Shown here in pieces: positions 11,925-41,961 of a stretch of DNA of 50,209 bases. Numbering within the stretch: the first letter of the stretch is position 1; each line of letters starts with the position of its first letter. The translations under genes and the position numbers were made by a program. The notes under the pieces are model-generated. The model was not told the DNA's origin, searched no databases, and was given only the letters and a program-made list of their open reading frames with translations. The stretch comes from Candidatus Micrarchaeota archaeon (lineage in GTDB: Archaea > Micrarchaeota > Micrarchaeia > Micrarchaeales > CABMGC01): assembly GCA_027366155.1 (NCBI GenBank), contig DAHXKV010000055.1, forward strand, positions 1-50,209, given 5' to 3'.

Positions 11925-12197
11925 ATGCCTGCTCGGTTAGCGCTAATTTTTTCCTATGGTGTATTTTTGGCAGAAAAAAGGGAAAATGATTTTGTACCTG
12001 TGCACATTCTCCTAAATGAAAAAGAAACCGAAGACGTTTTATCAAAGATGAACCTTAGGCGGGACAACCTCCCAAAGCTTCTCTCCGAGGATCCCCAAGT
12101 GAAGAAAATCGGGGCGAAGGCTGGACAGGTCCTGAAGATATACAGAAAAGACGGAGAGCATGAGTACGAATACTATCGTACGGTAGTAGACGCTTAG
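11925..12197 (+). CDS. rpoH: DNA-directed RNA polymerase subunit H (Rpo5)
   Basis: The sequence FVPVHILLNEKETEDVLSKMNLRRDNLPKLLSEDPQVKKIGAKAGQVLKIYRK...YRTVV is Rpo5-like. It is the first gene of the rpo operon, and a TATA box lies about 30 nt upstream. Confidence 0.8.
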   Translation: MPARLALIFSYGVFLAEKRENDFVPVHILLNEKETEDVLSKMNLRRDNLPKLLSEDPQVKKIGAKAGQVLKIYRKDGEHEYEYYRTVVDA

Positions 12198-12205
12198 GTG
12201 CACCG

Positions 12206-13696
12206 ATGGCTTCGAATAGAAATGTATTGCTTGAATCATACCTGAGCGCAGCAGCCCTGGTACAGCACCAGATAGAAAGCTACAACAGGTTCCTCGAAAC
12301 CGGAATCCCCAAGGCGATGGGAGGTCAGACGATAATAGAGCCAAGCGTGGAAGGCTTTGCGCTGAAACTGGGCTCTGTAAGGATAGGCAGCCCTTCAGTC
12401 ATAGAGGCAGACAGCTCCAGGCGCAACATACTTCCAAATGAGGCAAGGCTGAGGAATCTCACCTATTCCGCCCCAATATTCATGGAAGTGGTTCCGGTAA
12501 TAAGGGGCATAGAAAAAACGGCATCGTACGGTGAGGTATATGTAGGAGACCTGCCAATAATGGTAAAAAGCAATTTCTGTGCAACGAAAACAATGACGCG
12601 TACCCAACTTATAGAAAACGGGGAAGATCCGGACGACCCTGGTGGCTATTTCGTAATAAAAGGCATCGAGCGCGTGCTCATCGGCCTCGAGGATGTCGCT
12701 TCGAACAGGATAATAACTACAAAGGAGAAGAAAGGCACCGAGGTAAAAGCCAGGGTCTTTTCATCCACTCCTGGATTCAGGGCACGCTGCGTAGTCACGC
12801 GCACCCAAGGTGGAATGTTCTCCGTAGATTTTCCTACTGTAAGCAAGAGCCTTGAGCTTGTACTGCTCCTGAAGTCCCTCGGCATGGAAGAAGAGGACAT
12901 AAAGAAGTACGCAAACGAGGTTCTTTCATTCAAAAACGACATGCTCCTAAACATAGAGCTGAGCCAGACCACTAAGGATGGCGGCATGGGTCCCGCAGAC
13001 GCACTCCTGGAAGTAGGAAGGCTTGCTGCGCCTGGACAAGCGAAGGAATACCAGATCAGGCGCGCAGAGATGCAGCTGGACAATTATCTCCTTCCCCATG
13101 TCGGCACAGATCCCAAGTCCAGGACAGAAAAAGGCAATTATTTGCTGGAGATGGCACGCAAATCCACCATGGTGGCAAACAGGCTTGTAAAGCAAGACGA
13201 TAAGGACAATTACGCAAACAAGAGGGTAAGGTTTTCAGGGGAGCTCATGGAGGAGCTATTCGCATACGCGTTCCGTTTCTTCCTCAAGGAAATAAAATAC
13301 CAAATAGAGCGGATGAGCGCAAGGGGCAGAAGGCTTTCAATCCAATCAATAATAAGCCCTGACACACTCACCGAAAAGATATCATATGCTATGGGTACTG
13401 GGACATGGGTAGCTGGTCAGACCGGTGTATCGCAGGTACTCGACAGGACAAACCTTATAAGCACATATGCACACCTGCGCAGAATAAAGTCTCCGCTTGC
13501 AAAGAAGCACCCACATTTCAAGGCAAGGGACGTGCATGGAACACAGTGGGGCAAGGTCTGCCCATCAGAAAGCCCGGAAGGCCAAGAAGTAGGACTTACC
13601 AAATACATGGCGCTCATGTCTAAGGTAACTGTTGGCGCAGACGAAGCGCTCACCGAGAAGGAGCTAAGGGAGATAGGAAAAATAGAATCACTATAG
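12206..13696 (+). CDS. rpoB2: DNA-directed RNA polymerase subunit B'' (N-terminal part of the split Rpo2)
   Basis: The sequence LVQHQIESYNRF...GYFVIKGIERVLI...RIKSPLAKKHPHFKARDVHGTQWGKVCPSESPEGQEVGL is Rpo2-like. AGGTG lies 6 nt upstream of the ATG. Confidence 0.95.
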   Translation: MASNRNVLLESYLSAAALVQHQIESYNRFLETGIPKAMGGQTIIEPSVEGFALKLGSVRIGSPSVIEADSSRRNILPNEARLRNLTYSAPIFMEVVPVIRGIEKTASYGEVYVGDLPIMVKSNFCATKTMTRTQLIENGEDPDDPGGYFVIKGIERVLIGLEDVASNRIITTKEKKGTEVKARVFSSTPGFRARCVVTRTQGGMFSVDFPTVSKSLELVLLLKSLGMEEEDIKKYANEVLSFKNDMLLNIELSQTTKDGGMGPADALLEVGRLAAPGQAKEYQIRRAEMQLDNYLLPHVGTDPKSRTEKGNYLLEMARKSTMVANRLVKQDDKDNYANKRVRFSGELMEELFAYAFRFFLKEIKYQIERMSARGRRLSIQSIISPDTLTEKISYAMGTGTWVAGQTGVSQVLDRTNLISTYAHLRRIKSPLAKKHPHFKARDVHGTQWGKVCPSESPEGQEVGLTKYMALMSKVTVGADEALTEKELREIGKIESL

Positions 13697-13706
13697 TGGT
13701 TGTTCG

Positions 13707-15527
13707 ATGGCAGAAAAGAAGACATATTTGCATCTTAACGGAAAAGCGATAGGCTTTGTTGAAAATCCTGAAAAGTTTATCGCTGAGGTCAGGCAAGCAA
13801 GGCGACGTGGCCAAATCTCAGGAGAGATAAATGTCGCATATTTTCCAAAGAACGACGAAATACACATAAATACGGACCGCGGACGCCTCAGAAAGCCGTA
13901 CATAATCGTGGAGAATGGCAAGTCAAAGATGACCCCCGAGCTGATGGATAAGATACAGAAGAAGGAAATAAACTACTCATATCTGCAGCGCAGCGGAATA
14001 ATAGAATACCTGGATGCGGAGGAGGAGGAAAACGCACTTGTCGCACTCAGTGAAAAGGAGATAACGCAGGAAACAACACACATAGAGGCAAACTACACCT
14101 CCATCTTCGGGTTTACCATAAACACCTCACCGTTCCCTGAGCACAACGCACTTGCAAGGCACGCGATGAGCGCTAACTTCATAAAGCAGGCAGAAGGACT
14201 CTACTCAACGAACTTCAATCAGCGGTTCGATTCAAGAGGCTACCTGCTTTACTATCCTCAGGTTCCTGTCGTCTCAACTGCTGCCTACTCGTCCACAGGA
14301 TTGGAAACCCACCCAAGCGGCCAGAATTTTGTGGTAGCCATATCTACCTACTACGGCTACAACATGGCAGACGCGATAGTGATCAACAAAGCTGCAGTGG
14401 ACAGAGGCCTAGGAAGAAGCTCATTCTACAAGTCATACAGCGACGAGGAAAGAAGATATCCGGGAGGTCAGCGAGACAGGTTCAAGATACCCTCCCCAAC
14501 CGCTGACGGATACATGGGCGAGCATGCATACTCAAAACTGAGCGATGACGGCATCATAGAGCCGGAAGTCGACGTCAGGGAAGGCGACGTGCTCATTGGC
14601 AAGGTGGCGCCTCCAAGGTTCCTTGAGGAAAACATAGGGGCAAGCGGCCTAGAGGAAAAAATGAGAGACGACTCCACTGTAATAAAGACCGGGGAGTTCG
14701 GAAAAGTCGACAGCGTGATACTCACCGAGACCTCCGGGGCCACAAAGATAGTAAAAGTTAGGATAAGGAGCGAGAGGGTTCCTGAAAAAGGAGACAAGTT
14801 CGCCAGCAGGCACGGGCAGAAAGGAGTGCTCGCATTGATAGTTAACCAGGAAGACATGCCTTTCTCGGAAACTGGAATAATACCAGACCTGCTCCTGAAC
14901 CCACACTCCATACCTACAAGGCTTACCTTCGGTCACCTGATGGAAATGCTTGCCGGAAAGGCAGGCGCCTTAGACGGCATACATACTGACGGGACCGCCT
15001 TTGCCGACGATGGTAAATCGCGTCTAAGCCTGTACAGCGAGATGCTTAAGCAGAACGGCTACGACGAACACGGAGACGAGACGCTTTACGACGGGATAAC
15101 CGGCACCCCGTTCAAGGCAAAGGTCTTCACCGGCGTAGTTTACTACAACAGGCTATACCACATGGTCAGCAATAAGATACAGGTAAGGAGCAGAGGCAAA
15201 GTGCAGATACTCACGCACCAGCCTACTGAGGGAAAGGCAAGACAGGGAGCCCTTAGGTTCGGGGAGATGGAACGCGACGCACTGATAGGCCATGGCGCAA
15301 GCCTCCTCCTAAAGGAAAGGATGCTGGACCAATCTGACAAAACCACTGTGCTCATATGCAAGGCATGCGGCGAAATAGGCTATTACGATCATGTGAAGCG
15401 CGCAAACGTCTGCCCTCTTGACGGGAACAGCCAGCTGGTACCTGTAGACATAAGCTACGCGTTCAAGGTGCTTCTTGACGAGATAAAGTCGATGCACATA
15501 ATGCCGAGGATAAGGATGAAGGAGTGA
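13707..15527 (+). CDS. rpoB1: DNA-directed RNA polymerase subunit B' (C-terminal part of the split Rpo2)
   Basis: The motifs are HNALARHAMSANF, GQNFVVAI, GDKFASRHGQKGV, RFGEMERDALIGHGAS, and a terminal zinc-ribbon region. Confidence 0.95.
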   Translation: MAEKKTYLHLNGKAIGFVENPEKFIAEVRQARRRGQISGEINVAYFPKNDEIHINTDRGRLRKPYIIVENGKSKMTPELMDKIQKKEINYSYLQRSGIIEYLDAEEEENALVALSEKEITQETTHIEANYTSIFGFTINTSPFPEHNALARHAMSANFIKQAEGLYSTNFNQRFDSRGYLLYYPQVPVVSTAAYSSTGLETHPSGQNFVVAISTYYGYNMADAIVINKAAVDRGLGRSSFYKSYSDEERRYPGGQRDRFKIPSPTADGYMGEHAYSKLSDDGIIEPEVDVREGDVLIGKVAPPRFLEENIGASGLEEKMRDDSTVIKTGEFGKVDSVILTETSGATKIVKVRIRSERVPEKGDKFASRHGQKGVLALIVNQEDMPFSETGIIPDLLLNPHSIPTRLTFGHLMEMLAGKAGALDGIHTDGTAFADDGKSRLSLYSEMLKQNGYDEHGDETLYDGITGTPFKAKVFTGVVYYNRLYHMVSNKIQVRSRGKVQILTHQPTEGKARQGALRFGEMERDALIGHGASLLLKERMLDQSDKTTVLICKACGEIGYYDHVKRANVCPLDGNSQLVPVDISYAFKVLLDEIKSMHIMPRIRMKE

Positions 15528-15531
15528 TAAT

Positions 15532-18111
15532 ATGCAGGCTGAAGCAATAGACCATATAAAATTCGGGATAGTCTCTCCTGACGAAACAAAGAAGATAAGC
15601 GTAGTCAAGCTTACCATACCTGACACATACAACGAAGATGGCTATCCTATCGATGGAGGCCTCCTCGACCAGAGGCTGGGTGTCATAGACCCTGGGCTCA
15701 TATGCAAGACCTGCGGCTCACGTGCAAAGACCTGCCCTGGCCATTTCGGCCACATAGAACTAGTAAAGCCCGTAATCCACTCTGAATTTTCAAAGATAAT
15801 CTACATGGTCCTTCAGGCAACATGCATGAGCTGCCACAGAATCCTCCTCAACGAAGAACAGATAGCAGAGCTGAAGAAGAAAGAGCTAGAGTCTGCGGAT
15901 GCACAGGCTTCCGACGCTCTTCAGATCCAGCAAACGGAGCAGGAGAAACAGGACGGTGAGCAGGCCTCTCAGCAGAACAAGAAGGCAAACAAGATAAAAC
16001 GGACAAAGAGATGCCCATACTGCAATGAGGAGCAGCCAAAGCTCAAGTTCTCCCAGCCCACATACTTCAATGTTGGGGACAACCGGCTCAAGCCAGACGA
16101 AATAAAAGACATGCTTGGAAAGGTGAGCGACGAAGACCTGCGGCTCCTAAACATGGATCCTAAGAACAGCAGGCCCGAATGGCTCATACTAACCTCGCTC
16201 CTCGTTCCTCCTGTGAACGTAAGGCCCAGCATAACACTCGAGTCCGGAGAAAGGAGTGAGGACGACCTCACGCACAAGCTCGTAGACATAATGCGCATTA
16301 ATCAGAGGCTGGAGCAGAACATAAACGCCGGCGCGCCGCAGATCATAATAGACGACCTCTGGGAACTGCTCCAGTACCACGTCACTGCATATTTCAACAA
16401 TGAAACCTCAGGAATACCACCTGCAAGGCATCGGAGCGGCAGGGCGCTCAAGACCCTCGCACAGAGGCTTAAGGGCAAGGAAGGCAGGTTCAGATACAAC
16501 CTAAGCGGCAAACGCGTAAACTACTCCGCAAGAACGGTCATAAGCGTAGATCCCTATCTTGACATAAACGAGGTCGGAGTGCCGCAGGAGATAGCAGAGA
16601 AGCTCACAGTACCTTTCTACGTAACTGCATGGAACCTTGAGCACGCGAAAGAGCTCATACAGAGGACCTCCTATCCCATAATACTGAACGTGATAATGAC
16701 AGACGGCAAGAGGATAAGGCTAATTGACGCGAACAGGGAAGAGGTCATAAAGAGCATCGTGCCGGGCATTATAATGGAAAGGCAGATAATTAACGGCGAC
16801 ATGGCCCTGTTCAACAGGCAGCCTTCCCTGCACAGAATCTCGATTATGGCACACAGGGTGCGTGTCCTTCCGGGCAAGACTTTCAGGATAAACTACTGCA
16901 CAACCGCTCCATACAACGCCGACTTCGACGGAGACGAGATGAACTTGCACATGCCGCAGACGCTCGAGGCACAGGCCGAGGCGAGGCACCTGATGGAAGT
17001 GCAGTACCAGATATTCTCCCCACGCGACGGCTCAGCTATAATAACAAACAGCGAAGACGGGATAAGCGGCATGTTCGCGCTTACCTCTGAGAACAACAGG
17101 CTGTCAAAAGACCAGGCCTGCTACTTGATGGGCATATGTGGCATATACGAGCTCCCCAAGGCGGAGCGCGACGGCACATACGACGGAAAGGCAATATTCT
17201 CGATGATACTGCCCAAGGGCCTTGAATACGGACAAGAAACCGCCAACGGGCAATTTGTTATAAAGAACGGCAAGCTAATCCAGGGCGTAGTAACAAAGGA
17301 GACTTATGGAAGGGACAACGGCCTATTCATAAGGATTGCAATGGACTACGGATATGACGAGCTCAGGAAGTTCATATATATATCTTCAAAGCTATCTGAC
17401 GCTTACGTAACACTCGCCGGAGTGACTGTAGGCGTAAAGGAATACGCAATAGACAGCAGAACGGAGGAGGAGAAGGAACGCATCCTAAAGGAAACCTTTG
17501 CAAAGGTCGAAAGCCTGATAAGCGACTACAAAACCCGAAAGCTCGAGCCACTCATTGGATATACGCTGAAGGAATCCCTCGAAAGGATGATAATAGCGGA
17601 ACTCAACCTTGCAAGAAGCAAAGCTGGCGAGTACCTTGCCAAGCATTCAGATGCGTCAAACAGCGCAGTCCAAATGGCCCGCTCAGGATCAAGGGGAAGC
17701 ATACTTAACCTAGAACAAATGTCGATGTTCCTTGGCCAGCAGGCCACACTCTCCGGAGGCAGGATAAAGCGCGGCTATTACACCAACAGGCTGCTGCCGC
17801 ACATCAGGCCAGGAGACGTAGGTCCTTCAGCACGCGGTTTCATAATAACGAATTACTATGGGGGACTATCTCCGGTAGACCTGTTCAGCCACGCGGTAGG
17901 GTCTAGAGGTTCAGAGGTATACAAGGCCTTGCTAACGGGAAGGTCCGGATACCTATACAGGAGGCTCTCAAACGCCCTTCAGGACTACTACGTAAACAAA
18001 GACATGAGCGTTAGGGACATAAACAACAACATAATCCAGACAATATATGGTGGAGATGCGATCGACCCGGTAAAGACGCAGTTCGCACGCATGGCTGAAG
18101 AGGAGGAATGA
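15532..18111 (+). CDS. rpoA1: DNA-directed RNA polymerase subunit A' (Rpo1N)
   Basis: It has a zinc site [20 protein letters not shown], the catalytic [12 protein letters not shown], and [15 protein letters not shown]. Confidence 0.95.
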
Positions 18112-18115
18112 TAAT

Positions 18116-19168
18116 ATGGCATCCAGCGAAAAAAAAGATAAAAACTCAAGATTTGCGGTAAACTATGGCGAACCCGTAGGCATGATTGCGGCACAGTCCA
18201 TAGGAGAGCCAGGCACGCAGATGATTCTCAGGACATTCCACTATGCAGGCATAGAGGCTACCATTGCAACCTCTGGCCTTCCGCGGATAGTAGAGCTTGT
18301 TGACGCACGCAAGAAGCCCGCAACCCCTATAACGCACATCTACCTTAATGCAGAAGCACGCAAGAACTTCGAGAAGGCCGAGCAGGTAGCAAAAAAAATA
18401 AACGAGGTAAACATGGGCACAATAACGAGAAGGGCAATAGAGAGCTTCTCCAAGGGTGCAATAAAATTAATCCTGGACGAACAATCCCTCTCTGCAAACG
18501 ACCTCACACCGGCTCAGGTAGTCCAAAGGCTGATAAAGACCATGGCGCTTGATGCGCATGCAGATGAGGATGGAAACATCATAGTAAAGCTGAAGACTAC
18601 TAACCTTGCCGAGATAAGGCAGACAAGCGTCAAGATAATGAAGAAGACCATCCAGGGAGTCGAGGGCGCCGGCAAGGCAGTGCTCCAGCGGAGTAAAGAC
18701 GGCGAATTCTACGTAGTTGCCGCCGGAAGCAACATAGAATCGATAATAGATGTGGAGGGAATAGACAAGTCAAGGCTTTACACTAACGATGTTTTCGCAA
18801 TGTACCGGCTCTTCGGGATAGAGGCTGCAAGGAACACGATAGTGAACGAGCTCAAGGCAACCCTCGACGAGCAGAAAATAGACGTCGACCCAAGGCACAT
18901 AATGCTTGTTGCCGACGCGATGACTTATTCGGGCTTTGTAAAAGGCGTCGGAAGGCATGGTCTCTCTGGCCAAAAGAACTCGGTCTTCGCCAAGGCGGCC
19001 TACGAGGAGACTATAAAGCACCTTGTAAACGCAGCCGCATTCGGAGATGTTGACCCGATGCGTGGCGTGACTGAAAACATCCTTGTGGGAAAGCAGATAC
19101 CGATAGGTACAGGCTCTGTAAGGCTTGCGATCAAGAAGGAAGACATGAAAAAGACAAAGCCTTCGTGA
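18116..19168 (+). CDS. rpoA2: DNA-directed RNA polymerase subunit A'' (Rpo1C)
   Basis: The motifs are [48 protein letters not shown] and [10 protein letters not shown]. Confidence 0.95.
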
Positions 19169-19210: not shown

Positions 19211-20485
19211 ATGATACTTAGGGACGTGGAGAGGGAAGTCATCAAGGCAGATGCGAACGGATTTGTCCTGCCCCGTTACGATGGATTCTCCCTATACAAC
19301 GTGCCGCACACCGCAACCAACATACTGGGAGGCAAACCCGCAGGCAGGATTCTTGACGCCTCGATAGGAAACAGGCTAGACACGCATGGCATAAAGAAGG
19401 TGGCCATCCTTCTCGTGGACGGCTTTGGCTATGACATGTTCGTAAAGTCAATGGGTTACGCGTCATTCTTCAGGAAGATATCGGAAAAGGGCATAATTGC
19501 CCCTATAACGAGCGGCTTTCCCTCAACCACTGCTGCCTCGATTACAACGATGAACACAGGCCTGACGCCGCCGGAGCACGGTCTGCTGGAATGGGTATTG
19601 TACTTCAAGGAGATAGGAAAGACTATAAACACGCTGCCTTTCACCTCTATGGACAATGTGCCGCTCAGGGGCAAGCACAGCCCGGAAATACTTTACTCAG
19701 GAAAGACCCTATACGAGCATCTGAACAAGGAAGGAATAAACGCTTACTCAATAATAGACAGGCAGCTTGACAAATCGGAGTACAACAACCTATTCAGCAA
19801 AGCAAAGAAGGGCATAACCCATGTTAAGAATTCAGACCTTGCAATAAGGCTCCGCGACGCACTTGAAGGCGAAAAAGGAAAGGGATACTTCTACGCATAT
19901 ATCTCAAGCGTTGACACCAGCACCCATGCACACGGCCCCCATACTGAAGAGTCGGAAGCAGAGATACTCTCTGTTTCGCATTCGATTGAAGACGGCCTTC
20001 TGGCAAAGCTTAAGCAGGAGACAGCGGAAGAGACACTACTCATGATAACCGCAGACCATGGTCACACCTTGCTGGATCCGAAGAAGACGATATACCTGAA
20101 CCGCTACAGAAGTCTTGATGCCCTCTACGCCAGAGACAGTAACGGTACAGCCATACCTCCTGTTGGAAGCCCCAGGGACGTCTTTCTACACATAAGGGCG
20201 GGCAAGCTCCAGGAAGCTGCAGATTTCCTATCAAAAAAGCTCGAGGACACGGCCGAAGTTCTAAAAATTGACGAAGCTATAGAGAAGGGCATATTCGGAG
20301 ACCAGACAAGCAAGGCATTCTCCGAGCGCGCGGGCAACCTGATAATCCTTCCTTTCGGTGGAAAGTCGGTATGGTACGAACACGTGCATGGAAAGAAACA
20401 CGAGATGATAGGGATGCACGGAGGGCTTAGCAAAGAGGAAATGCTTATCCCATTAGCAGCAGTAAGGCTCTCAGAACTGATATGA
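19211..20485 (+). CDS. Alkaline-phosphatase superfamily enzyme, type-I phosphodiesterase / nucleotide pyrophosphatase (NPP)-like
   Basis: The metal and nucleophile motifs are LLVDGFGYDMF, GFPSTTAASITTMNTGLTPPEHGL, SSVDTSTHAHG, ITADHGH and GMHGG. I see no signal peptide. Confidence 0.75.
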   Translation: MILRDVEREVIKADANGFVLPRYDGFSLYNVPHTATNILGGKPAGRILDASIGNRLDTHGIKKVAILLVDGFGYDMFVKSMGYASFFRKISEKGIIAPITSGFPSTTAASITTMNTGLTPPEHGLLEWVLYFKEIGKTINTLPFTSMDNVPLRGKHSPEILYSGKTLYEHLNKEGINAYSIIDRQLDKSEYNNLFSKAKKGITHVKNSDLAIRLRDALEGEKGKGYFYAYISSVDTSTHAHGPHTEESEAEILSVSHSIEDGLLAKLKQETAEETLLMITADHGHTLLDPKKTIYLNRYRSLDALYARDSNGTAIPPVGSPRDVFLHIRAGKLQEAADFLSKKLEDTAEVLKIDEAIEKGIFGDQTSKAFSERAGNLIILPFGGKSVWYEHVHGKKHEMIGMHGGLSKEEMLIPLAAVRLSELI

Positions 20486-20731
20486 ACTGACTATATGCCT
20501 CTGGGCAAAGCCCACCCATGGCCTAAAGAACCACTGCCCCTGCTTTCCCATGGTCTCTCATATAAATATGCTCCTCAAGCCAGGCAATTAATGGCCGCGT
20601 CCCACGCACAAGGCTTATAAATCTGAGACGCATTAAATTATCCTAATTGTAGATGCGGGCTCTGCATGGTTTTGAGAAGCACTAGCTAGCCTACCATTCG
20701 CGCTACAATCGCTAGAGGAAAAGGCTTTAGT

Positions 20732-22831
20732 ATGCGCAAGAACCAAAATGATCTTACGGACAAGGAGGTGCTTTTGGGTTACAAGAAGGCGCTTTCCTCT
20801 ATGGGGATAAGTGAGCTCATAAGACTCTTGCCTGAAGACAGCCCAGCAAATTACCAGTCCATAATAGCCGATTATGTAGTAAAGGCCATATGGTACTCAA
20901 GACAAGGCACAGATGCGCACAGGCAAAGTGCAGCAAGCCTTCTCTATGGGAAAAATTTTATAAAAAAGGAAGGCACACTGGGAGACATGATTCTTCTAAT
21001 GCAGCTTATTGAAGTTGTAGACCAGCTTGAAAAATTCGAAAAGTATCCAGTAACGGTAAATTCGCTCAAGACTCTACGCGGCACGCTGATAAAAAACCTA
21101 TTTGGAAATAGCAAATATGGCCCTGGACTGAGGAGATACAGGAACAGCACAGGTCCGTACATAACCGAACCGATGGAAAGCATGTCCAACCAACTTAAAA
21201 AAACAATTAGTTTGCTAAACACCAAGCACGAGGATCCAACTGAAGCCTTCATGAATGGTATCCAGTTCTATGCAGAATTCATAAAAATACACCCATTTGA
21301 GGATACTGACGGAAGGACTGCAAGACTGCTATACAACTGGTATGCTATAAAAAACAGGATAAGGGCCATTCATATAAGCGAAGAGTTTAAGGATATGTAC
21401 ACCGAAGTCCTTCACCCTTACTATCTTTCAGGATATATCGGCTCAGCTGTTACCTCGATGCTGCTACTTACGTTAACTCCTAGGCGGATAGACCGGCTTA
21501 AGAAACTTATGAAAAGGGAGGAAACGGATTCATTGACGATAGTGGAGTTGAAAGCACTGCTTAAAGCAAGCCTTAACATGGCAGACCCGGAAGAACTGGG
21601 AAGGGATGTGTCAAGGCTTTTTGAGGCCCGGTCAGAAAAAAAGAACTATTCATATGCAGCTCTATGGCTTTGCAACTTAACTAATCTGGATCACGAAGTT
21701 ATAAGGCGAGCCTACGAAGAAACAGAAGATCCAAAGCTAAGGGTACTTGCAGTTAACGTAATGAGCAAAATAAATTATCAAAAATATAAAGACCTAATAA
21801 TGGGATCACTACTTAAAGACCCTGACGAAAATGTGAGGGCGCAGGCTGTCATGCAGATAGGCCTGAAAGGCGATATTAATAAGATACATCCAAAAATAAT
21901 CGAATCGGAAAAAAGCGCACTTGTACTAATGACTCTTGGCAAAGCCTTGACTTTTGTTGATGGTCATGGGGAAACAGAACCAAACATGCTCCAAAAAACA
22001 ATAAAACGCCTCATGGCAGACGAAGAACCCAATGTGAGACTGAGGGGATACCAGGCATTTGCTGCAAGATCCGGGGTGGAAGAAATAACCGGTATGCTGG
22101 CTGGCGACTTCCTAAAAATTGATTCTATGCTCCAAAAAGAAGTAATTGTAGAACTGAACAGGACTAACAGATTAAACACACCACAAATATCGCGTAGGCT
22201 TTCAGAACTTGCAAAAGACGATATAACAATAAAACAACACCTGCTCGGCGAACTTGGTATTAAAGGCGTTTCAGGGAATGGATACGAGAGTTTATTCAGG
22301 CACATACTCTCAACAAACGGCCACACCGACGGCGAAAGAGCCCATGCGATATATTTGCTAGGGAAGCAAAAGGGCTATGACTACCTATGCGAGCTAAAAG
22401 AACTCCTGGGCCCTGTATACTCGAAACTCGAAAAACTGGCCGTAGCCCTTGTATATCTTGATTCATTAGAAAGCACAAATGGTATTTCCCCACCCAAACA
22501 CACGCTGAACGACATACTTCCTTCAGGATCAAGCCTAGAAATCATGGCAAAGGTGGCTCTGGCAATAGAGGTAAGCAAATCAGGGCACGACATCGATAAC
22601 AGAGTACTCAGTGTGCTCACCGAAGGCAATACAGGTTCCAATCCATTCGGCATGGTCCTTAGGGGGAGAGCCAACGGAGAAACCAACGCAAGAGCAAATG
22701 GAGGGGCAATGGAAACTATCTTTAACGAGATAGTAAGGCTATGTACTAAACACCCAGAACCATCCACTCCAACAACCACTCTACGAGCAGAAGCTCCACG
22801 TAGTCCACGTCCGAGGATGCGCCTGAATTAA
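20732..22831 (+). CDS. Fic (Fido) domain protein with a non-canonical motif, fused to C-terminal HEAT-like repeats
   Basis: The Fic core is FYAEFIKIHPFEDTDGRTARLLYNWY, with the motif at nt 21290-21325. The HEAT / PBS-lyase-like repeats are EDPKLRVLAVNVMSKI, DPDENVRAQAVMQIGLKG and DEEPNVRLRGYQAFAARSG. The tail is Pro/Arg-rich. Confidence 0.75.
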   Translation: MRKNQNDLTDKEVLLGYKKALSSMGISELIRLLPEDSPANYQSIIADYVVKAIWYSRQGTDAHRQSAASLLYGKNFIKKEGTLGDMILLMQLIEVVDQLEKFEKYPVTVNSLKTLRGTLIKNLFGNSKYGPGLRRYRNSTGPYITEPMESMSNQLKKTISLLNTKHEDPTEAFMNGIQFYAEFIKIHPFEDTDGRTARLLYNWYAIKNRIRAIHISEEFKDMYTEVLHPYYLSGYIGSAVTSMLLLTLTPRRIDRLKKLMKREETDSLTIVELKALLKASLNMADPEELGRDVSRLFEARSEKKNYSYAALWLCNLTNLDHEVIRRAYEETEDPKLRVLAVNVMSKINYQKYKDLIMGSLLKDPDENVRAQAVMQIGLKGDINKIHPKIIESEKSALVLMTLGKALTFVDGHGETEPNMLQKTIKRLMADEEPNVRLRGYQAFAARSGVEEITGMLAGDFLKIDSMLQKEVIVELNRTNRLNTPQISRRLSELAKDDITIKQHLLGELGIKGVSGNGYESLFRHILSTNGHTDGERAHAIYLLGKQKGYDYLCELKELLGPVYSKLEKLAVALVYLDSLESTNGISPPKHTLNDILPSGSSLEIMAKVALAIEVSKSGHDIDNRVLSVLTEGNTGSNPFGMVLRGRANGETNARANGGAMETIFNEIVRLCTKHPEPSTPTTTLRAEAPRSPRPRMRLN

Positions 22832-22843
22832 CAATAGCCCCTT

Positions 22844-23716
22844 ATGGTATTGAGAATGAAAATTAATGCCACTGCAAAACGCGCTTCTCGGCTGCACGAG
22901 ATGCTTAGGTCAAAGGAAGGCGTAGTCCTAGACAAGGACGGTGTCTTAATAGACAACTCCGGGCTAGTATTTGCCAATCTTCAACTTGGATTTCATCGAG
23001 CTGGCGAGCCTTTCAATTTTGAGAAGCGTTTGGTCTGGAGCCTTAACGGCATCGACAGGAGCTTTATGGGGACAAAACCGGTAATGGCATTGCTCTGCAT
23101 GAATAAACTGGCCAATATCTGCGGAGAGAAAGATCCAAACTCGCTGCTTAGAGAGATACTTTCTAAAGCTGATGCACCTCACATCCTTACCAAAATCATA
23201 AATTCGCACACTACAGAAGACGACCACTCAAAAGCAGAGGAAATATACTGGCACGACGGCGGCTCCTTCTTCAATTCGGAGGAAGGCACCAGGCACTTAA
23301 GACAGTCTTTCAGGGCAAGAGAAGCGCTGGAACGCTTGCTAGGCCTGTATTCTGGAAAAGTTGCTATACTCACAAACGCGCCGAAAAGATCCAGTGTAGA
23401 AAGAAATCTTAAAAAGACTGGCTTTGGCGAACTCACGGACCACCTTTTAATACTTACTGGAGAAGATGTAGTAAATTCAAAGCCTAATCCTGAAGGCCTA
23501 TATACAATATCGCGCAAACTCGGAATTAAGATCCCTTCCTTGTTCTTTGTTGGGGATTCGGTTACTGACATAGACACTGCAAAAGGGTGTGGAATGGATT
23601 CTGTAGCACTCTATGGCGGCGCCGGATTTCCAATACACCTGAAGAATGCACGCCCCACGGCAACGGCACTCAACGTAATGTCTGTTGCAGAGGCATCGCA
23701 AGTCAAAAGGGGATGA
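22844..23716 (+). CDS. HAD-superfamily phosphatase with a large cap insert
   Basis: HAD motif I is VVLDKDGVLID, motif II is AILTNA, motif III is SKPNPEG and motif IV is FVGDSVTDIDTA. It starts 12 nt after the Fic gene stop. Confidence 0.75.
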   Translation: MVLRMKINATAKRASRLHEMLRSKEGVVLDKDGVLIDNSGLVFANLQLGFHRAGEPFNFEKRLVWSLNGIDRSFMGTKPVMALLCMNKLANICGEKDPNSLLREILSKADAPHILTKIINSHTTEDDHSKAEEIYWHDGGSFFNSEEGTRHLRQSFRAREALERLLGLYSGKVAILTNAPKRSSVERNLKKTGFGELTDHLLILTGEDVVNSKPNPEGLYTISRKLGIKIPSLFFVGDSVTDIDTAKGCGMDSVALYGGAGFPIHLKNARPTATALNVMSVAEASQVKRG

Positions 23717-24348: not shown

Positions 24349-25203
24349 ATGAAGGAAAGACTTACTATAACGCTTGACAGCAAGCTACTAGAAAGTCTCG
24401 ATGCAACGATAGATGGAGTAAATGTGAGGAACAGGTCGCATGCCATAGAGCGCCTCCTCGACATGGTCCTTACGCAGTCTATGACAAAAAAGGCAATCGT
24501 GCTAGCCGGAGGGAACACACTGAGCTTCAAAGGTCAGCACGATGTACCTAAACCAATGCTAATGGTCAAAGGCAGGCCAATCCTTGAGTACGTGATAAGG
24601 GAGCTCAAAAGAAACGAAATAACTGAGGTGCTCATGGCAATAGGCCACGGCGGAGAAAAGATAGTATCATACTTCGGAGACGGCTCAATGTTCGGCGTCA
24701 GTATAAACTACATAAAAGAAGACACACCAAAAGGAACCGCGAATGCACTCTCCCTTGCAAGGGGCCTTGTCGGATCAGCCCCATTTTTTGTAATAAATGG
24801 GGACAACATCTTCAAGATAAACCTTAAGGAAATGTACAAACAGCATGTGTCAACTAAGGCCCTTGCTACCATATCATTAGCAACAGCTGACGTGACCTTA
24901 GGTTTCGGCGTCACACGGCTTGACGGCTTCAAAGTAACCCGCTTTCTGGAGAAGCCAGCCAATGAAAAAGGAAAGCTGGTAAGCGCCGGCATATACTTAT
25001 TCAACCCAGCCATCTTTGACATAATAGAAAAAGAAGGTGCCGCGCGCTCCATGCTTGAACGCAACGTCTTCCCGAAGCTGTCCAGCTCCGGAAACCTGTA
25101 TGGATACGCATTCTCTACGCCATGGTATCCCCTAGATTCCAAGAACATTGGAGAGAGCCTCGCCAAATTGGAAAAGATCGCCGCTACCTTTGAAAGAGAA
25201 TAA
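24349..25203 (+). CDS. Ribbon-helix-helix (CopG/NikR-like) domain fused to a sugar-phosphate nucleotidyltransferase-fold domain
   Basis: The N-terminus MKERLTITLDSKLLESLDATIDGVNVRNRSHAIERLL is RHH-like. The rest is NTP_transferase-like: VLAGG...VPKPML, VINGDNIF, FLEKP and SAGIYLF. Confidence 0.75.
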   Translation: MKERLTITLDSKLLESLDATIDGVNVRNRSHAIERLLDMVLTQSMTKKAIVLAGGNTLSFKGQHDVPKPMLMVKGRPILEYVIRELKRNEITEVLMAIGHGGEKIVSYFGDGSMFGVSINYIKEDTPKGTANALSLARGLVGSAPFFVINGDNIFKINLKEMYKQHVSTKALATISLATADVTLGFGVTRLDGFKVTRFLEKPANEKGKLVSAGIYLFNPAIFDIIEKEGAARSMLERNVFPKLSSSGNLYGYAFSTPWYPLDSKNIGESLAKLEKIAATFERE

Positions 25204-34518: not shown

Positions 34519-37500
34519 ATGTCATTGTACGCAGTTTTTATAGGCTTTATCTCAATAATTGTCCCAGGGTTCTTTCTCTCACTGGCCCTGCTCAAGAAAA
34601 CTAAGCTTAACATAATCGAAATAGCCATAATAGGGTTCATCTTTGGCATGATCTTCCCTCCAGGGATGACATGGATTGAAGGGTATTTCATAAACAGCAT
34701 ACACTTCCTGGCCTTTTCCGCAAATCTATATCAAATAAATGTAGTGATCCTGACAATAGTAGGAATAATCCTATCTGCATGGCAGGGTGCATTCGGCACT
34801 GATTTCCTTGCCAAGTTAAACTTTTCAGGAACCAACGGCTCCAGAAAGCACGTCACTGCCGCAGCGGAGAAACACTACGAATTAGATTCTAAGATAACCT
34901 CCTTAAAGATCGACGAGCAGCTAATGCTCCGGCACAAGGCTGAAGAAGATGAGATGCAAAAGCGCCACTCTGGAGAACTCGCCATGCTCAAGCAGAAAGG
35001 CGCAGGAAGCGAAGAGCTTGAAAAGGTCAGGGAATCACACGCGGAACAGGAGCGCAACCTCCACCGTGAGCACGAAAGGGAGGAAAGCAGAGTTCTTGCA
35101 GAAAAGCCAAAACCGCAAAGCACCCAGATAATGCACTATCTTGCATGGGGGCTCTTGCTGGTACTGATGCTCGTTGCATTTTCCTCTAGAGTATCAAATA
35201 TCTCCACAGCACCACGCTATTTCGAATTTGACCCATACTTTGACATGATGAGCACCGCGCAAATACTTACTTACGGGTACCAGCTCAAGCTTGACCATTC
35301 TGCATGGCCCGTATATCTCAACGGTTCGCTCATACAGCAGGGAAGCAACGCGGCAAACGGCACAATCCACAGGATACAGCCTCTCATGCCCTACCTTGAG
35401 GCTTACTGGTATGAGATAGCCAACTCACCTCCGCCTCCAGGGATAAGCCAAGCCTCAACCTCCGGTGCGGTAAACACCAACCTACTTTCAACCGTTAGTT
35501 CAGTCTACCCCCCCATAACCGCAGCACTGCTTGTTTTTGTTGTATTCATGTTCCTATACCATGAGTACGGCGACTTCCCTGCAATAATAGGCGCGGCATT
35601 TGCCACAATCATGCCCACATTGATAACCACTTTTATAGCCGGAGAGCAGCTTGTCGAGCCGTGGGGCATCTTCGCCCTGTTCTTCATGGTAGCTTCATAC
35701 GCGCTAGCGGCACAGAATCCTAAGGAGAAACGATACGCGATACTTGCCGGAATAGCATTCGCATCAAACTTCCTCGGCGCGCACTACTACAACGTAACTG
35801 CCGCAGTGCTTGCATTCTACATACTCGTGCAATCGATAATAGACGCAGCAACTGACAGAAACAGTATGGACTTCTATAAGATGAATGCCCTGATGCTCTT
35901 TGTAATAATACTATTCTATGCAGTATATGCGCCTTACAATGCAACCCTTACTAATAGGATCCCGACAATACTCGGCATTCCGACAATAGTATCATTTCCA
36001 CTGCTCGCCCTGATTGTGGGCGTACTCGCTGGAATACTTACCGACACCCTCTCATTTTCCTCTATACCTAAGAATGCCAAAGAGATCCTCCACAAGCCGC
36101 TTAACCTGTTCGGGAAGAATAACCGTACCGTTGGGAGGGTATTTGTCATAATAGCCCTCATAATAATTGCAATAGTGGCGATACTTGTCACCCCAATAGG
36201 CAAGCCTATACACGACTACATCTCCCTGGCAGAGCATTTCACAACCCCATCAACTCCGCTCTTCATGACAGTGCAGGAGTACCTTGTCACTGGCCCTGCA
36301 TTCAATTTCGGCTCGGCAGGATTCGGGATCATAGGTGCGAGCATAGGCGGATTCCCGCTCATAATCTGGATAATGTTGATACTTTTCATGATTATGACAG
36401 CATACGAGATCTTCCTAAAAGGCTCCAGGTCTGCCATATTCACCTTAGTAATGGTCCTCGTGCTATCTGCGGCAGGAATGAGCGAGGTCAAGTACCTCCC
36501 GCACTTCGGCGTTGCATACATAATAGCAATCGGCGTTGTAATAGGCGAGCTATACATGATAGTAAAATCACTATCACGCGACACCGTGAAAAACTCCACA
36601 ACCCTTTACACAATAGGCGCTGGCGCTATAATCATAGAATCAACCCTTCTGATCCTAAGCTCGGGCATGCTGATAGGGCTTGCAATAATTGCAGTAGGCA
36701 TAATCATATCAGTAATATACTCGTACCTCGCCACCAACTCCTCCCCAACCGAGGCAAATCTTTCTATGTATTCGACGGGCATGTCCGCATTAATCCTTGG
36801 AATTCTGGTAATAATCTCCGGTGCCTCGCCTCTTATCACTACGTTTACTGCACATAACATGAGCTGTTCAAACATCTCAAAGGACAACATGGTGGTTGCC
36901 GATACGATGTATTGCAATCAGCTGACGTCCCAATGGCTTACTGCCACTGAATGGATGAGGGCAAACATAGGGCCTTTCGCCCCAAGGATACTTTCATGGT
37001 GGGACTATGGGGACTGGATAAACTGGTTCGGGAACAGCAACGCCGTTATACGCGGTGACAACGCAGTTGCCACGCTAGACTATGCAGTCGCTGCACACTA
37101 TGTCCTGGGAAGCAGCGACGGATACAACTCTACCGCGCTCGGGAAGTTTATGGACTCAACTCAGGCAAAATATGTCCTTTTTGACGATCAGCTTGTGCCA
37201 AAGTGGTCTGCTCTAGACTTCCTGGCCTGCGTATACGCGAATCAGACGAGCAAGGCATATGCAATATCGCAAGGCAAGCCTTATGGGCAGTCTTTCCTTC
37301 TTGGCACCTCTCCATGCGAGCTCTCACACGACCCGGCGGTAATCGCTATACCTGCACAGCCAAGCATAAACGAATACTGCCAGCTTCCAAACAAGGTGAC
37401 TGCAATAAGTGCGATCTCGCTTGTGGGGATGACTGTGCCTTCTCAGCTAAACCAGTCATTCTGCGTTTCTCCAACCCAGAACGCAAACGGCGTCCTAAAC

Positions 37501-37863
37501 GTCTATTATGCAAACGGTACCAAAGCAAATGTAGTAATATCTTCCTACTATTATCTGGGAACGATAGCCGGTCCAAGCAGCCAGACATATCTGGAGTTCC
37601 TAGAGATATACCTGCCGAACGGGCCTAACGACACAATAACCAATGCACCTACTGCGTTCTACAACTCCACTTACTACAAGGGCTTCTTCCTCGGCAGGCT
37701 AAACGGCTTCACGCTGGTATACCCTAAAAACTTCACCGGCATAAACATGGTGAACTCCACAAACACTGTAATGATACTTGAGGAAAACAACTACACCGGC
37801 GGAATGCCTTATGTAACACCGAAGCCTTCATGGATAAAAAACAATTATACCATACCTGGATGA
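34519..37863 (+). CDS. aglB: Oligosaccharyltransferase AglB (STT3 family) with a 204-aa N-terminal extension
   Basis: WWDYG lies at nt 36997-37011 and an EL1-type FEFDPYFDM motif follows the TM helix starting at aa 205. The protein is polytopic, and its C-terminal globular domain is rich in N-x-S/T. Confidence 0.85.
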   Translation: MSLYAVFIGFISIIVPGFFLSLALLKKTKLNIIEIAIIGFIFGMIFPPGMTWIEGYFINSIHFLAFSANLYQINVVILTIVGIILSAWQGAFGTDFLAKLNFSGTNGSRKHVTAAAEKHYELDSKITSLKIDEQLMLRHKAEEDEMQKRHSGELAMLKQKGAGSEELEKVRESHAEQERNLHREHEREESRVLAEKPKPQSTQIMHYLAWGLLLVLMLVAFSSRVSNISTAPRYFEFDPYFDMMSTAQILTYGYQLKLDHSAWPVYLNGSLIQQGSNAANGTIHRIQPLMPYLEAYWYEIANSPPPPGISQASTSGAVNTNLLSTVSSVYPPITAALLVFVVFMFLYHEYGDFPAIIGAAFATIMPTLITTFIAGEQLVEPWGIFALFFMVASYALAAQNPKEKRYAILAGIAFASNFLGAHYYNVTAAVLAFYILVQSIIDAATDRNSMDFYKMNALMLFVIILFYAVYAPYNATLTNRIPTILGIPTIVSFPLLALIVGVLAGILTDTLSFSSIPKNAKEILHKPLNLFGKNNRTVGRVFVIIALIIIAIVAILVTPIGKPIHDYISLAEHFTTPSTPLFMTVQEYLVTGPAFNFGSAGFGIIGASIGGFPLIIWIMLILFMIMTAYEIFLKGSRSAIFTLVMVLVLSAAGMSEVKYLPHFGVAYIIAIGVVIGELYMIVKSLSRDTVKNSTTLYTIGAGAIIIESTLLILSSGMLIGLAIIAVGIIISVIYSYLATNSSPTEANLSMYSTGMSALILGILVIISGASPLITTFTAHNMSCSNISKDNMVVADTMYCNQLTSQWLTATEWMRANIGPFAPRILSWWDYGDWINWFGNSNAVIRGDNAVATLDYAVAAHYVLGSSDGYNSTALGKFMDSTQAKYVLFDDQLVPKWSALDFLACVYANQTSKAYAISQGKPYGQSFLLGTSPCELSHDPAVIAIPAQPSINEYCQLPNKVTAISAISLVGMTVPSQLNQSFCVSPTQNANGVLNVYYANGTKANVVISSYYYLGTIAGPSSQTYLEFLEIYLPNGPNDTITNAPTAFYNSTYYKGFFLGRLNGFTLVYPKNFTGINMVNSTNTVMILEENNYTGGMPYVTPKPSWIKNNYTIPG

Positions 37864-41888: not shown

Positions 41889-41961
41889 TAGCCCCAACCG
41901 GATTCGAACCGGTGTTTGCGGGTCCAAAGCCCGCCGTCCTTGGCCGCTGGACGATGGGGCT
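41889..41961 (-). tRNA. tRNA-Gln (anticodon UUG)
   Basis: I folded the cloverleaf by hand on the minus strand. The acceptor stem is AGCCCCA/TGGGGCT, the D stem GTCC/GGAC, the anticodon stem GCGGG/CCCGC with loop CTTTGGA, and the T arm ACCGG-TTCGAAT-CCGGT. The discriminator is A, and there is no encoded CCA and no intron. Confidence 0.9.

Follow-up and report, generated by a model that had tools for sequence, protein, structure and literature searches.

A conserved Fic-fold protein with an altered catalytic loop fused to a HEAT solenoid in Micrarchaeota

The locus analysed here raises the question of what a Fic-type protein with a deviant catalytic loop might do in an archaeon of the DPANN lineage Micrarchaeota, the members of which depend on hosts. 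Among the switches that act by modifying proteins, Fic enzymes form a major class, about which, to our knowledge, next to nothing has been established for archaea. The gene in question sits on the chromosome of a Candidatus Micrarchaeota archaeon (assembly GCA_027366155.1, contig DAHXKV010000055.1), of which a stretch of 50,209 nucleotides, hereafter the window, was analysed. It encodes a protein that we denote Fic-HEAT, an identical copy of which occurs on two contigs. The initial annotation, made from the letters of the window, proposed a Fic domain with a deviant motif followed by a long array of HEAT repeats, for which no described equivalent was known. On the last point the literature agrees, since none of the publications searched describes an equivalent protein, and a search of NCBIfam found no specific family for it.

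The proposed Fic fold is borne out by profile and structure comparisons. Within the 699-aa protein, the Pfam Fic profile (PF02661) scores 36 bits over aa 107–204, against a cutoff of 24, and the AF2 model (pLDDT 84.5, pTM 0.86) displays the order of elements expected of a Fido domain, namely, helices, flap strands (aa 139–144; the two strands span aa 139–140 and 143–144), the loop (aa 187–192), and the subsequent helix (aa 193–207). In Foldseek searches, the Fic part of this model matches CdFic, BT_2513, FICD, and Coxiella Fic2. Of the Fic matches obtained by single sequence and by structure, the best are CdFic of Clostridium difficile (4x2c/4x2d/4x2e) and BT_2513 (3cuc; E = 3e-5 over aa 65–236; Foldseek TMt 0.61 and 0.50), two bacterial class II proteins, but, unlike Fic-HEAT, both are single-domain proteins of ~230–290 aa with a canonical GNG loop and an inhibitory Glu, and without HEAT repeats. 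The HEAT array fared less evenly. By sequence, only ~3 repeats are recognizable (aa 332, 363, and 430), and yet the HEAT_2 profile (PF13646) reaches 31 bits (cutoff, 27.7) and, in the AF2 model, the helices form an unbroken solenoid that spans aa ~268–581, mostly with pLDDT >90, and that matches PP2A-A, karyopherins, CAND1, SF3B1, and alphaRep. With a profile score above threshold and an alpha-solenoid, this region belongs to the HEAT_2/PBS-lyase HEAT-like group. The DPxxxVRxxA signature is shared with alphaRep and other PBS-HEAT-like proteins (E down to 4.5e-8; Foldseek TMt 0.66), but unlike in alphaRep, the solenoid outside these ~3 repeats is family-specific, with blocks such as KKEIVVEL..KLN and ERAYAIYLLG. 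Fic-HEAT is a genuine Fido fold fused to an alpha-solenoid. A role of the solenoid in nucleic acid binding was considered and rejected, the HEAT domain being slightly acidic on average.

Table 1 Features of the Fic-HEAT locus; positions are those of the window
Feature	Position	Strand	Description and basis
PF01663 (NPP-type) phosphodiesterase/nucleotide pyrophosphatase, cytoplasmic	19211..20485	+	Pfam Phosphodiest, E = 4.8e-33
BRE/TATA-like putative promoter block AAGGCTTATAAATC	20610..20623	+	~110 nt 5′ of the start codon; upstream alignment
Fic-HEAT protein gene	20732..22831	+	Intact ORF, 699 aa; Pfam Fic and HEAT_2
Degenerate N-terminal inhibitory helix	20852..20920	+	aa 41–63; family alignment, fixed-spacing table, profile, AF2 model
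Flap region NSKYGPGLRRYRNSTGPYITE	21107..21169	+	aa 126–146; beta-hairpin, registers target
Fic catalytic loop HPFEDTDGRTAR	21290..21325	+	aa 187–198; sequence and family alignment
HEAT-type alpha-solenoid	21533..22474	+	aa 268–581, ~22 helices; HEAT_2, alphaRep, Foldseek, AF2
Low-confidence C-terminal tail	22475..22828	+	aa 582–699; pLDDT <60; includes SVLTEG
HAD-IA family phosphatase, large cap	22844..23716	+	Pfam HAD_2 and Hydrolase

An exhaustive search recovered ~45 clusters of homologs, each with a full-length representative, which constitute a previously undescribed family; its remote members were recovered by this search alone. A word-index profile search returned four close homologs along with generic Fic and HEAT proteins and nothing more remote, whereas scanning genome contigs with a four-sequence alignment, the patterns of which were too clade-specific, yielded only generic bacterial Fic cores. 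A metagenome scan with the alignment of the Glu-less branch (generic pattern HPFED[GTA][DN]G) gave no full-length relatives and was swamped by ordinary Fic genes of gut metagenomes. Among 41 family members, Fic PF02661 is found in all and HEAT_2 in 25. The nearest relative of solved structure is FICD/HYPE, the class II AMPylase/deAMPylase of BiP (human; FIC-1 in C. elegans), to which the family profile aligns from the inhibitory helix through the catalytic loop with E = 4.8e-28, whereas the window protein alone matches it weakly (E = 0.06). The two share the Fic core, the flap, an N-terminal inhibitory helix, and a helical-repeat domain. FICD uses its repeat domain to recognize the substrate and requires Glu234 for deAMPylation (PMC8373988). 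The differences are that the repeats form a C-terminal HEAT solenoid of ~320 aa rather than an N-terminal TPR domain, that the transmembrane anchor of FICD is lacking, that the carrier is an archaeon, and that the clade of the window protein has no gatekeeper Glu and carries TDG in place of GNG.

The inhibitory helix merits closer attention because the initial annotation missed it, pointing instead to SVLTEG (nt 22610–22627) as the sole match to the inhibitory motif. That match does lie where it was reported, within the low-confidence tail, but a hit of this type is expected 0.8 times by shuffling (P(≥1) = 0.56), and it is conserved only in a relative with 68% identity; a class III-type C-terminal inhibitory helix was therefore rejected. 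The family profile aligns the segment at aa 41–63 with the TVAIEGN helix of FICD, and the AF2 model places a helix at aa 41–53 followed by a loop at aa 54–63. An N-terminal, intramolecular position is that of the inhibitory helix of class II proteins (FICD/SoFic), and the family is accordingly FICD-like class II. In the window protein, however, the inhibitory position (aa 55–61) reads YSRQGTD, that is, S56-R-Q-G-T60-D61 against the canonical (S/T)xxxE(G/N): the Ser is kept, but the gatekeeper Glu is replaced by Thr60 and the G/N by Asp61, and the motif is not matched. Family-wide, the canonical YSSxIEGN is present in 17 of the 41 members and a Glu at the canonical spacing in 21. The Glu is absent throughout the window clade, which has specifically lost it.

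The position and the altered residues of the deviant motif HPFEDTDGRTAR were given exactly in the initial annotation. H, P, F, E, D, G2, R1, and R2 are retained, whereas G1 is changed to Thr and Asn to Asp, and the complete AMPylator signature HxFx(D/E)GNGRxxR is absent. All four homologs compared (38–68% identity) carry the Asp, within HPFEDTDGR in three and HPFEDSDGR in one. Yet the motif is no isolated oddity but one state in a family in which the G-N positions drift widely: the close relatives P0006 and P0010 have the canonical GNG, four members have ANG, and the distant member P0034 has a Doc-like GNKR loop. On the family tree, Asn was replaced by Asp at least four times independently. 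The Asp is found in 9 of 20 members without the gatekeeper Glu, compared to 1 of 21 with it (Fisher p = 0.004, with no correction for phylogeny), an association based on about four independent events. About half of the family combines the canonical YSSxIEGN with GNG. The surroundings of the loop are far more constant. Within the window clade, 74% of the positions in the flap region (aa 119–149) and 78% in the motif helix (aa 183–205) are invariant, compared to 23% in the entire protein. No other part of the protein is conserved as strongly as these two, and the active site is thus under selection. Across the 41 members, R195 is invariant, each of H187, P188, G194, and R198 is retained by at least 90%, and the flap residues R134 and R135 are near-invariant (R134 kept in at least 90%). 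In characterized Fic proteins, R1 and R2 bind the beta- and gamma-phosphates and the E/D binds Mg (PMC3667792), and Fic-HEAT retains all of these residues. The motif Asn touches the alpha-phosphate in all competent ATP complexes (PMC3667792). An Asp at this position, or the Val of other members, could block canonical AMPylation. We know of no characterized active Fic enzyme that lacks the Asn.

Fic-HEAT occupies a fixed chromosomal position amid housekeeping genes, immediately past the RNA polymerase operon; no mobile elements were found in the neighborhood examined, and the gene is vertically inherited. The AT-richness noted in the initial annotation is real but modest, with 43.7% GC in the gene compared to 48.6% in the window and 50.7% in rpoA′, and foreign origin as its explanation was rejected, the bias being mild and recent transfer being contradicted by synteny. 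Two hydrolase genes flank the Fic-HEAT gene. The upstream phosphodiesterase, for which no signal peptide was found, contains its catalytic motifs (DGFG70, FPSTT103, TGLTPPEHG116, DHG282, and HGG403), and no relative was found in the PDB at E ≤ 1e-3. The downstream HAD gene, which starts 12 nt past the Fic-HEAT stop codon and is probably co-transcribed with it, has intact DxDG, T/S-N, K, and GDxxxD motifs and a large cap, a feature typical of small-molecule rather than protein phosphatases. Matches of its N-terminus to polyubiquitin proved to be an artefact of repeat summing, with no single stretch passing on its own. Orthologs of the phosphodiesterase (41–62% identity) lie near or adjoin Fic-HEAT in loci L001, L002, L022, and L106, and those of the HAD protein (31–48% identity) are directly downstream in L001, L002, L022 (with a 4-nt overlap), and L106; in L018, a single gene intervenes. 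In 5 of 6 loci of the main clade, the HAD gene is directly 3′ of Fic-HEAT, with overlaps of 4 nt or gaps of 6–12 nt. The trio is intact in L106 despite unrelated flanks and permuted in L002 and L107, and in the Glu-less branch Fic-HEAT stays linked to the HAD and PF01663 genes even though the flanks vary. It should be noted that conserved gene order within a single phylum can be explained by shared ancestry as well as by function, and that in the deepest lineage, L107, the adjoining genes are paralogs or distant homologs rather than orthologs, the phosphodiesterase being a distant homolog. In the long gap upstream of Fic-HEAT, AAGGCTTATAAATC is the sole invariant block among six aligned upstream regions and would act as a promoter. 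A regulatory RNA in this gap was rejected given the lack of an Rfam match, an unremarkable fold stability (z = −0.22), and the promoter-like nature of the conserved block.

What we infer for the activity, reaction, donor, and target of Fic-HEAT and for the roles of the two hydrolases is, with a probability of about 0.5, that the protein is an active, ungated Fic transferase, the HEAT solenoid of which recruits an intracellular target and which works together with both hydrolases. Fic-HEAT would then belong to the class II transferases of the Fic fold, as a catalytically competent, FICD-like representative from Micrarchaeota, with the solenoid serving as a target-recognition scaffold in a role equivalent to that of the TPR domain of FICD, and its active site would move a phosphate-containing group from a nucleotide donor to a hydroxyl of the intracellular protein held at the flap. 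Having lost the gatekeeper Glu, the enzyme would escape auto-inhibition and would be devoid of the Glu-dependent Fic route of de-modification. However, a conserved acidic residue, D61, directly follows the position of the lost Glu and might still reach the active site, so that “ungated” is a putative description. The Thr-Asp anion nest would present a carboxylate where Asn meets the alpha-phosphate, probably altering the metal or donor geometry. The phosphodiesterase and the HAD phosphatase may belong to one pathway with Fic-HEAT, plausibly as erasers or clean-up enzymes. A bolder version of this scheme, which we regard as unlikely, is that the trio constitutes a self-contained new protein-modification cycle comprising a non-AMP writer, a core cellular target, and the hydrolases as external erasers. 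The writer would use another NDP-X donor or bind the donor in an inverted orientation, as Doc and AnkX do, and the external erasers would stand in for the lost Glu-dependent de-modification.

The strongest competitor of an active transferase, although still improbable, is a pseudoenzyme or nucleotide-sensing scaffold, in which the Fic domain would have ceased to catalyze transfer. It would instead bind a phospho-ligand or nucleotide and act jointly with the HEAT solenoid in regulating or scaffolding partners, possibly the neighboring phosphodiesterase and HAD protein. The state of the anion nest is consistent with this possibility: here Asp, and in 8 other family members Val, stands in place of the Asn that meets the alpha-phosphate, and GNG is retained in only ~17 of the 41 members, as opposed to 61 of 65 generic Fic matches. 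Precedent also exists among Fic proteins that have degenerate motifs and are not known to AMPylate, for example the EcFicT-like proteins, among relatives of which the central Asn was changed to Ser several independent times (PMC5033356). Recurrent substitution of this Asn is common to EcFicT-like toxins and the Fic-HEAT family. Nevertheless, the supposedly inactive EcFicT-like proteins have lost R1 and receive their inhibitory helix from an antitoxin, whereas the Fic-HEAT family keeps R1 (invariant) and R2 and has an intramolecular helix. Moreover, the catalytic His is missing in just 1 of the 41 members, the flap, the sole function of which is to register the side chain of a target, ranks among the best-conserved segments, and mere binding gives no obvious reason to keep both Arg residues along with the His and the acid that binds Mg.

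Unlikely, and decidedly less probable than the transferase outlined above, is a dedicated hydrolase, in which Asp193 would be the putative water-activating or metal-binding substitute for the lost Glu and which would mainly remove a nucleotidyl or phospho-group. The gatekeeper Glu places the hydrolytic water in FICD and EfFic, with the His as general acid (PMC8373988), and all the neighbors considered are hydrolases of phosphoester or nucleotide substrates. The loop Asp, furthermore, is recurrent and, as described above, almost exclusive to members devoid of the Glu. However, half of the Glu-less members keep the Asn, and the family can thus do without the Asp; also, no cognate writer enzyme was found in the window.

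That Fic-HEAT is an effector delivered into the host archaeon, where one of the host's proteins would be bound by the HEAT repeats and modified by the deviant Fic site through unusual chemistry, is very unlikely. Although the host dependence of Micrarchaeota, the combination of a repeat domain with Fic, typical of bacterial effectors, and the fast evolution of the protein (a relative is 38% identical where RpoA′ is 86% identical) could be taken in its favor, the phosphodiesterase and the HAD protein diverge at similar rates (42–45% identity), so that the fast evolution of Fic-HEAT is not special. Neither a signal peptide nor a transmembrane segment was detected in the protein, its gene has a fixed, vertically inherited place among housekeeping genes free of mobile elements, and the close association with two hydrolases of the cytoplasm points to a pathway inside the cell. 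The parallel drawn in the initial annotation with AnkX, a phosphocholine transferase of Legionella, is not supported either. In AnkX and in Doc, the kinase of P1, changes in or around the Fic loop accompany chemistry other than AMPylation, and AnkX, like Fic-HEAT, joins Fic to a repeat domain; G1 is tolerated as Ala in AnkX, Doc, and four Fic-HEAT family members. But AnkX has HxFxDANGRxxV (R2 lost), a CMP-binding insertion, and ankyrin repeats, whereas the window protein has TDG and keeps R2, and searches for ankyrin repeats (Pfam) and for AnkX (PDB sequence, profile, and Foldseek) gave no match to Fic-HEAT. Doc has HxFx(D/N)(A/G)NKR with Lys at G2, where the window protein has G194, GNKR being confined to P0034. 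Both AnkX and Doc possess the motif Asn that the window protein lacks. As for an artefact of sequencing or assembly in a canonical Fic gene, no supporting point was found and the idea is refuted by the homologs, given that TDG or SDG occurs in four independent assemblies from different samples at 38–100% identity.

A toxin–antitoxin or anti-phage module (FicTA, SoFic, PDC-S04) was likewise rejected because of the housekeeping neighbors and the conserved position: no small upstream antitoxin ORF accompanies Fic-HEAT in the window, and the PADLOC matches are confined to the Fic core, which argues against a defense system.

The family as a whole represents a graded series within one architecture, from Glu with GNG to no Glu with TDG, and can be used for testing in what way the gatekeeper and the anion nest co-evolve. 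The link to the phosphodiesterase and the HAD phosphatase suggests that modification might be reversed without the Fic Glu. Given that a very small genome retains a regulatory enzyme of 700 aa beside its RNA polymerase operon, this enzyme is probably important to the organism. Although it overturns nothing known of Fic biology, Fic-HEAT, with an altered active site and two hydrolase neighbors, is a good, if not revolutionary, target for biochemistry. Finally, the Pro/Arg-rich tail noted in the initial annotation is indeed present: the terminus ...PRPRMRLN (nt 22799–22828) is part of a conserved basic motif, [RK]-hydrophobic-[RK]-x(1–2)-COOH, which is shared by ~20 of the 24 sequences in the Glu-less branch.

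Fic-HEAT is a genuine, previously undescribed and lineage-specific form of a known kind of enzyme. Pfam assigns Fic/DOC to aa 107-204 (36 bits, cutoff 24) and HEAT_2 to aa 329-377 (31 bits, cutoff 27.7), and in sequence searches the best solved relatives are Clostridium difficile Fic 4x2e for aa 65-236 (E = 3e-5) and alphaRep HEAT-like proteins for aa 326-446. The AlphaFold2 model, built from 41 family sequences (pTM 0.86, mean pLDDT 84.5), is all-helical except for a short hairpin, the flap (aa 139-144). Helices 169-186 and 193-207 flank the catalytic loop, an unbroken solenoid of ~22 helices spans aa 268-581, and the tail beyond aa ~582 is modelled with low confidence. Foldseek matched this model in the PDB to the Fic structures CdFic (TMt 0.61), BT_2513, FICD, Coxiella Fic2 and M. 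marinum FIC, and to the HEAT solenoids of PP2A-A, karyopherins, CAND1, SF3B1 and alphaRep (TMt 0.66). The initial annotation is thus borne out as to the Fido fold of aa ~150-240, by profile and structure searches alike, and the continuous C-terminal alpha-solenoid; the deviant motif HPFEDTDGRTAR is found where it had been placed.

When 1.84 billion cluster representatives were searched exhaustively with phmmer, ~45 relatives proved to be full-length, with 580-700 aa and an identity of 23-41%; below these, scores fall to generic Fic-only or HEAT-only matches. All 41 aligned members match Pfam Fic and 25 match HEAT_2. The family profile matches human FICD/HYPE (E = 4.8e-28), and because this match extends from the inhibitory helix of FICD (TVAIEGN) to its catalytic loop (HPFIDGNGR), the family is, judging from the profile, class II and FICD-like. 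However, the TPR domain of FICD, which recognizes its substrates (PMC8373988), is N-terminal, whereas the HEAT solenoid is C-terminal. We found no description of the family in the literature on Fic with HEAT, archaea, Micrarchaeota or DPANN, and a TDG group is absent from the survey of Fic motif classes (PMC4454073).

A word-index search recovered only four clusters (100, 68, 38 and 38% identity), each of ~700 aa and identical in architecture to Fic-HEAT; their loops read HPFEDTDGR (three) or HPFEDSDGR (one), so that the closest homologues are not GNG proteins. Within this window clade, the flap segment (aa 119-149) and motif helix (aa 183-205) are 74% and 78% invariant, respectively, compared with 23% over the full length. 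Decay of the site, or an error in sequencing, would give the opposite pattern; on this sequence evidence, the deviant loop is real and under selection.

Across the family, R195 (R1 of the Fic loop HxFx(D/E)GNGRxxR) is invariant and H187, P188, G194, R198 (R2), R134 (flap), N202 and Y204 are at least 90% conserved; the variable loop positions are exactly the two flagged initially. The loop triplet is GNG in ~17 of the 41 members, GVG in six, ANG in four, GDG in four and TDG or SDG in four, with CVG, ENG, ADG, CDG, GNK and GVS as rarer forms, and is GNG in 61 of 65 generic Fic matches outside the family. The canonical class II inhibitory motif, YSSxIEGN, occurs in 17 members, aligned to window aa 55-62. 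Scored at fixed spacing from the conserved Tyr-Ser, the gatekeeper position holds Glu in 21 of 41; P0006 and P0010, close outgroups of the window clade, have this Glu and also keep GNG. In the window clade the position is Thr, Pro or Leu, and the residue after it (D61) is acidic and conserved. SVLTEG, earlier taken as an inhibitory-motif match, is at chance level (0.8 expected) and lies inside the disordered tail. Asp replaces the loop Asn in 9 of 20 Glu-less versus 1 of 21 Glu-bearing members, the anchor of the latter being ambiguous (Fisher p = 0.004, uncorrected for phylogeny), and this change had at least four separate origins on a neighbour-joining tree built without the loop and gatekeeper columns. 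Elsewhere in the family, the loop of P0034 (HPFEDGNKR) is Doc-kinase-like, P0036 (QPMTNANGR) has lost the catalytic His, and P0029 and P0037, which are related, read HPLTN(A/C)DGR..K.

Fic-HEAT lies in a conserved neighbourhood with genes for an NPP-type phosphodiesterase and a HAD-IA phosphatase (HAD). The adjoining HADs are mutual orthologues (31-48% identity), separate from a second HAD paralogue, and the phosphodiesterases share 41-62% identity; in locus L107 both are paralogues or distant homologues. Both enzymes have intact catalytic motifs, and no signal peptide is present in the phosphodiesterase. A polyubiquitin match of HAD aa 24-63 (window 22913-23032; PDB phmmer E ~ 3e-13) was discarded as a repeat-summing artefact, with zero stretches passing individually. 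Neither partner is seen in the Glu-bearing branch. In L024 the downstream gene encodes a Pol-beta-type nucleotidyltransferase, and the genes downstream of two Glu-bearing members (L020 2972-3301, L023 2382-3062) share 36% identity over 84 aa, a likeness that suggests a different conserved partner. For P0029, of the third, HPLTN branch, a downstream NUDIX hydrolase gene (L021 9189-9767) shares 4 nt with the end of Fic-HEAT, stop codon included, putting another nucleotide-diphosphate-X hydrolase in HAD's place.

Features of the window and gene order at loci carrying Fic-HEAT
Feature or locus	Position	Strand	Detail
rpo operon	11925-19168	+	rpoH, rpoB'', rpoB', rpoA', rpoA''
BRE/TATA-like block AAGGCTTATAAATC	20610-20623	+	sole conserved block upstream of Fic-HEAT, six loci
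Fic-HEAT ORF	20732-22831	+	699 aa
Fic catalytic loop HPFEDTDGRTAR	aa 187-198, nt 21290-21325	+	deviant motif
Basic C-terminal motif	aa 690-699, nt 22799-22828	+	ends RMRLN
Sugar-1-phosphate nucleotidyltransferase	24349-25203	+	N-terminal ribbon-helix-helix (CopG/NikR-like) domain
ORF	34519-37863	+	1114 aa
GT4 glycosyltransferase	37868-39016
Prepilin-type peptidase	39715-40584
tRNA	41889-41961	-	single tRNA gene
Window, L001			phosphodiesterase, Fic-HEAT, HAD; 12 nt between the last two
L002			Fic-HEAT, HAD, phosphodiesterase
L018			Fic-HEAT, ROK, HAD
L022			Fic-HEAT, HAD (4-nt overlap); phosphodiesterase 6 kb distant; RNA polymerase link lost
L106			phosphodiesterase, Fic-HEAT, HAD (6-nt gap); unrelated flanks: ThrRS, ERCC4, PhoU, PHO4, S8e
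L107			HAD, Fic-HEAT, then phosphodiesterase on opposite strand

[quoted passage not shown] The gatekeeper Glu of FICD keeps ATP from binding competently, and deAMPylation cannot proceed without it (PMC8373988). By inference, Fic-HEAT keeps all that binding of a nucleotide di- or triphosphate and deprotonation of a target hydroxyl require, no longer has the gate or the reverse reaction that depends on its Glu, and bears a carboxylate in the former place of the Asn. The most economical model, to which we assign a probability of about one half, is that Fic-HEAT would be a transferase that is ungated and whose metal or donor geometry is altered, that its solenoid would recruit an intracellular target protein, and that the linked phosphodiesterase and HAD would reverse or process the modification. 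The evolutionary pattern is clear, and the module hypothesis can be tested. A pseudoenzyme or sensor is unlikely; a dedicated hydrolase using Asp193, the substituted loop residue, is more doubtful still. A host-directed effector is quite improbable, and the AnkX-style framing initially proposed is not supported. That the motif is an artefact can be dismissed on the conservation of the flap and motif helix.

RpoA' of the window shares 65-70% identity with proteins labelled Candidatus Micrarchaeota, Micrarchaeia or Micrarchaeales (NCBI). The window carries housekeeping genes (rpoH-B''-B'-A'-A'', MCM, ProRS, PolD DP2, GluRS, DRG GTPase, beta-CASP nuclease, ADP-forming acyl-CoA synthetase, TrpRS/TyrRS) and no mobile-element genes. 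Fic-HEAT lies just downstream of the RNA polymerase operon in the window, L001, L002 and L018. In the window, where subunit B is split, this operon lacks its usual archaeal continuation, L30e-NusA-S12-S7, and phosphodiesterase, Fic-HEAT and HAD follow instead. Within the gap of 150-320 nt upstream of Fic-HEAT, AAGGCTTATAAATC resembles a BRE/TATA promoter of archaea, which would give a leader of roughly 85-110 nt; this region has no Rfam match and its fold stability is not unusual.

C-termini of the Glu-less branch (P0002-P0037 compared) share a terminal basic motif that is conserved, [RK]-hydrophobic-[RK]-x(1-2)-COOH, preceded by a disordered tail, with RVRLT, TRIKT, ARIRSV and others as variants; it may be a docking motif. 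Those of the Glu-bearing branch differ (FLxLxxxxLxxW). In the window, L001 and L022, one to three genes away from Fic-HEAT, lies the ribbon-helix-helix nucleotidyltransferase, in which a DNA-binding module is joined, unusually, to an enzyme that forms NDP-sugars. Farther along the window, the ORF of 1114 aa, without a Pfam family, is directly followed by the glycosyltransferase gene and, further on, by that of the peptidase; the tRNA is the only Rfam match of the window at the gathering threshold.
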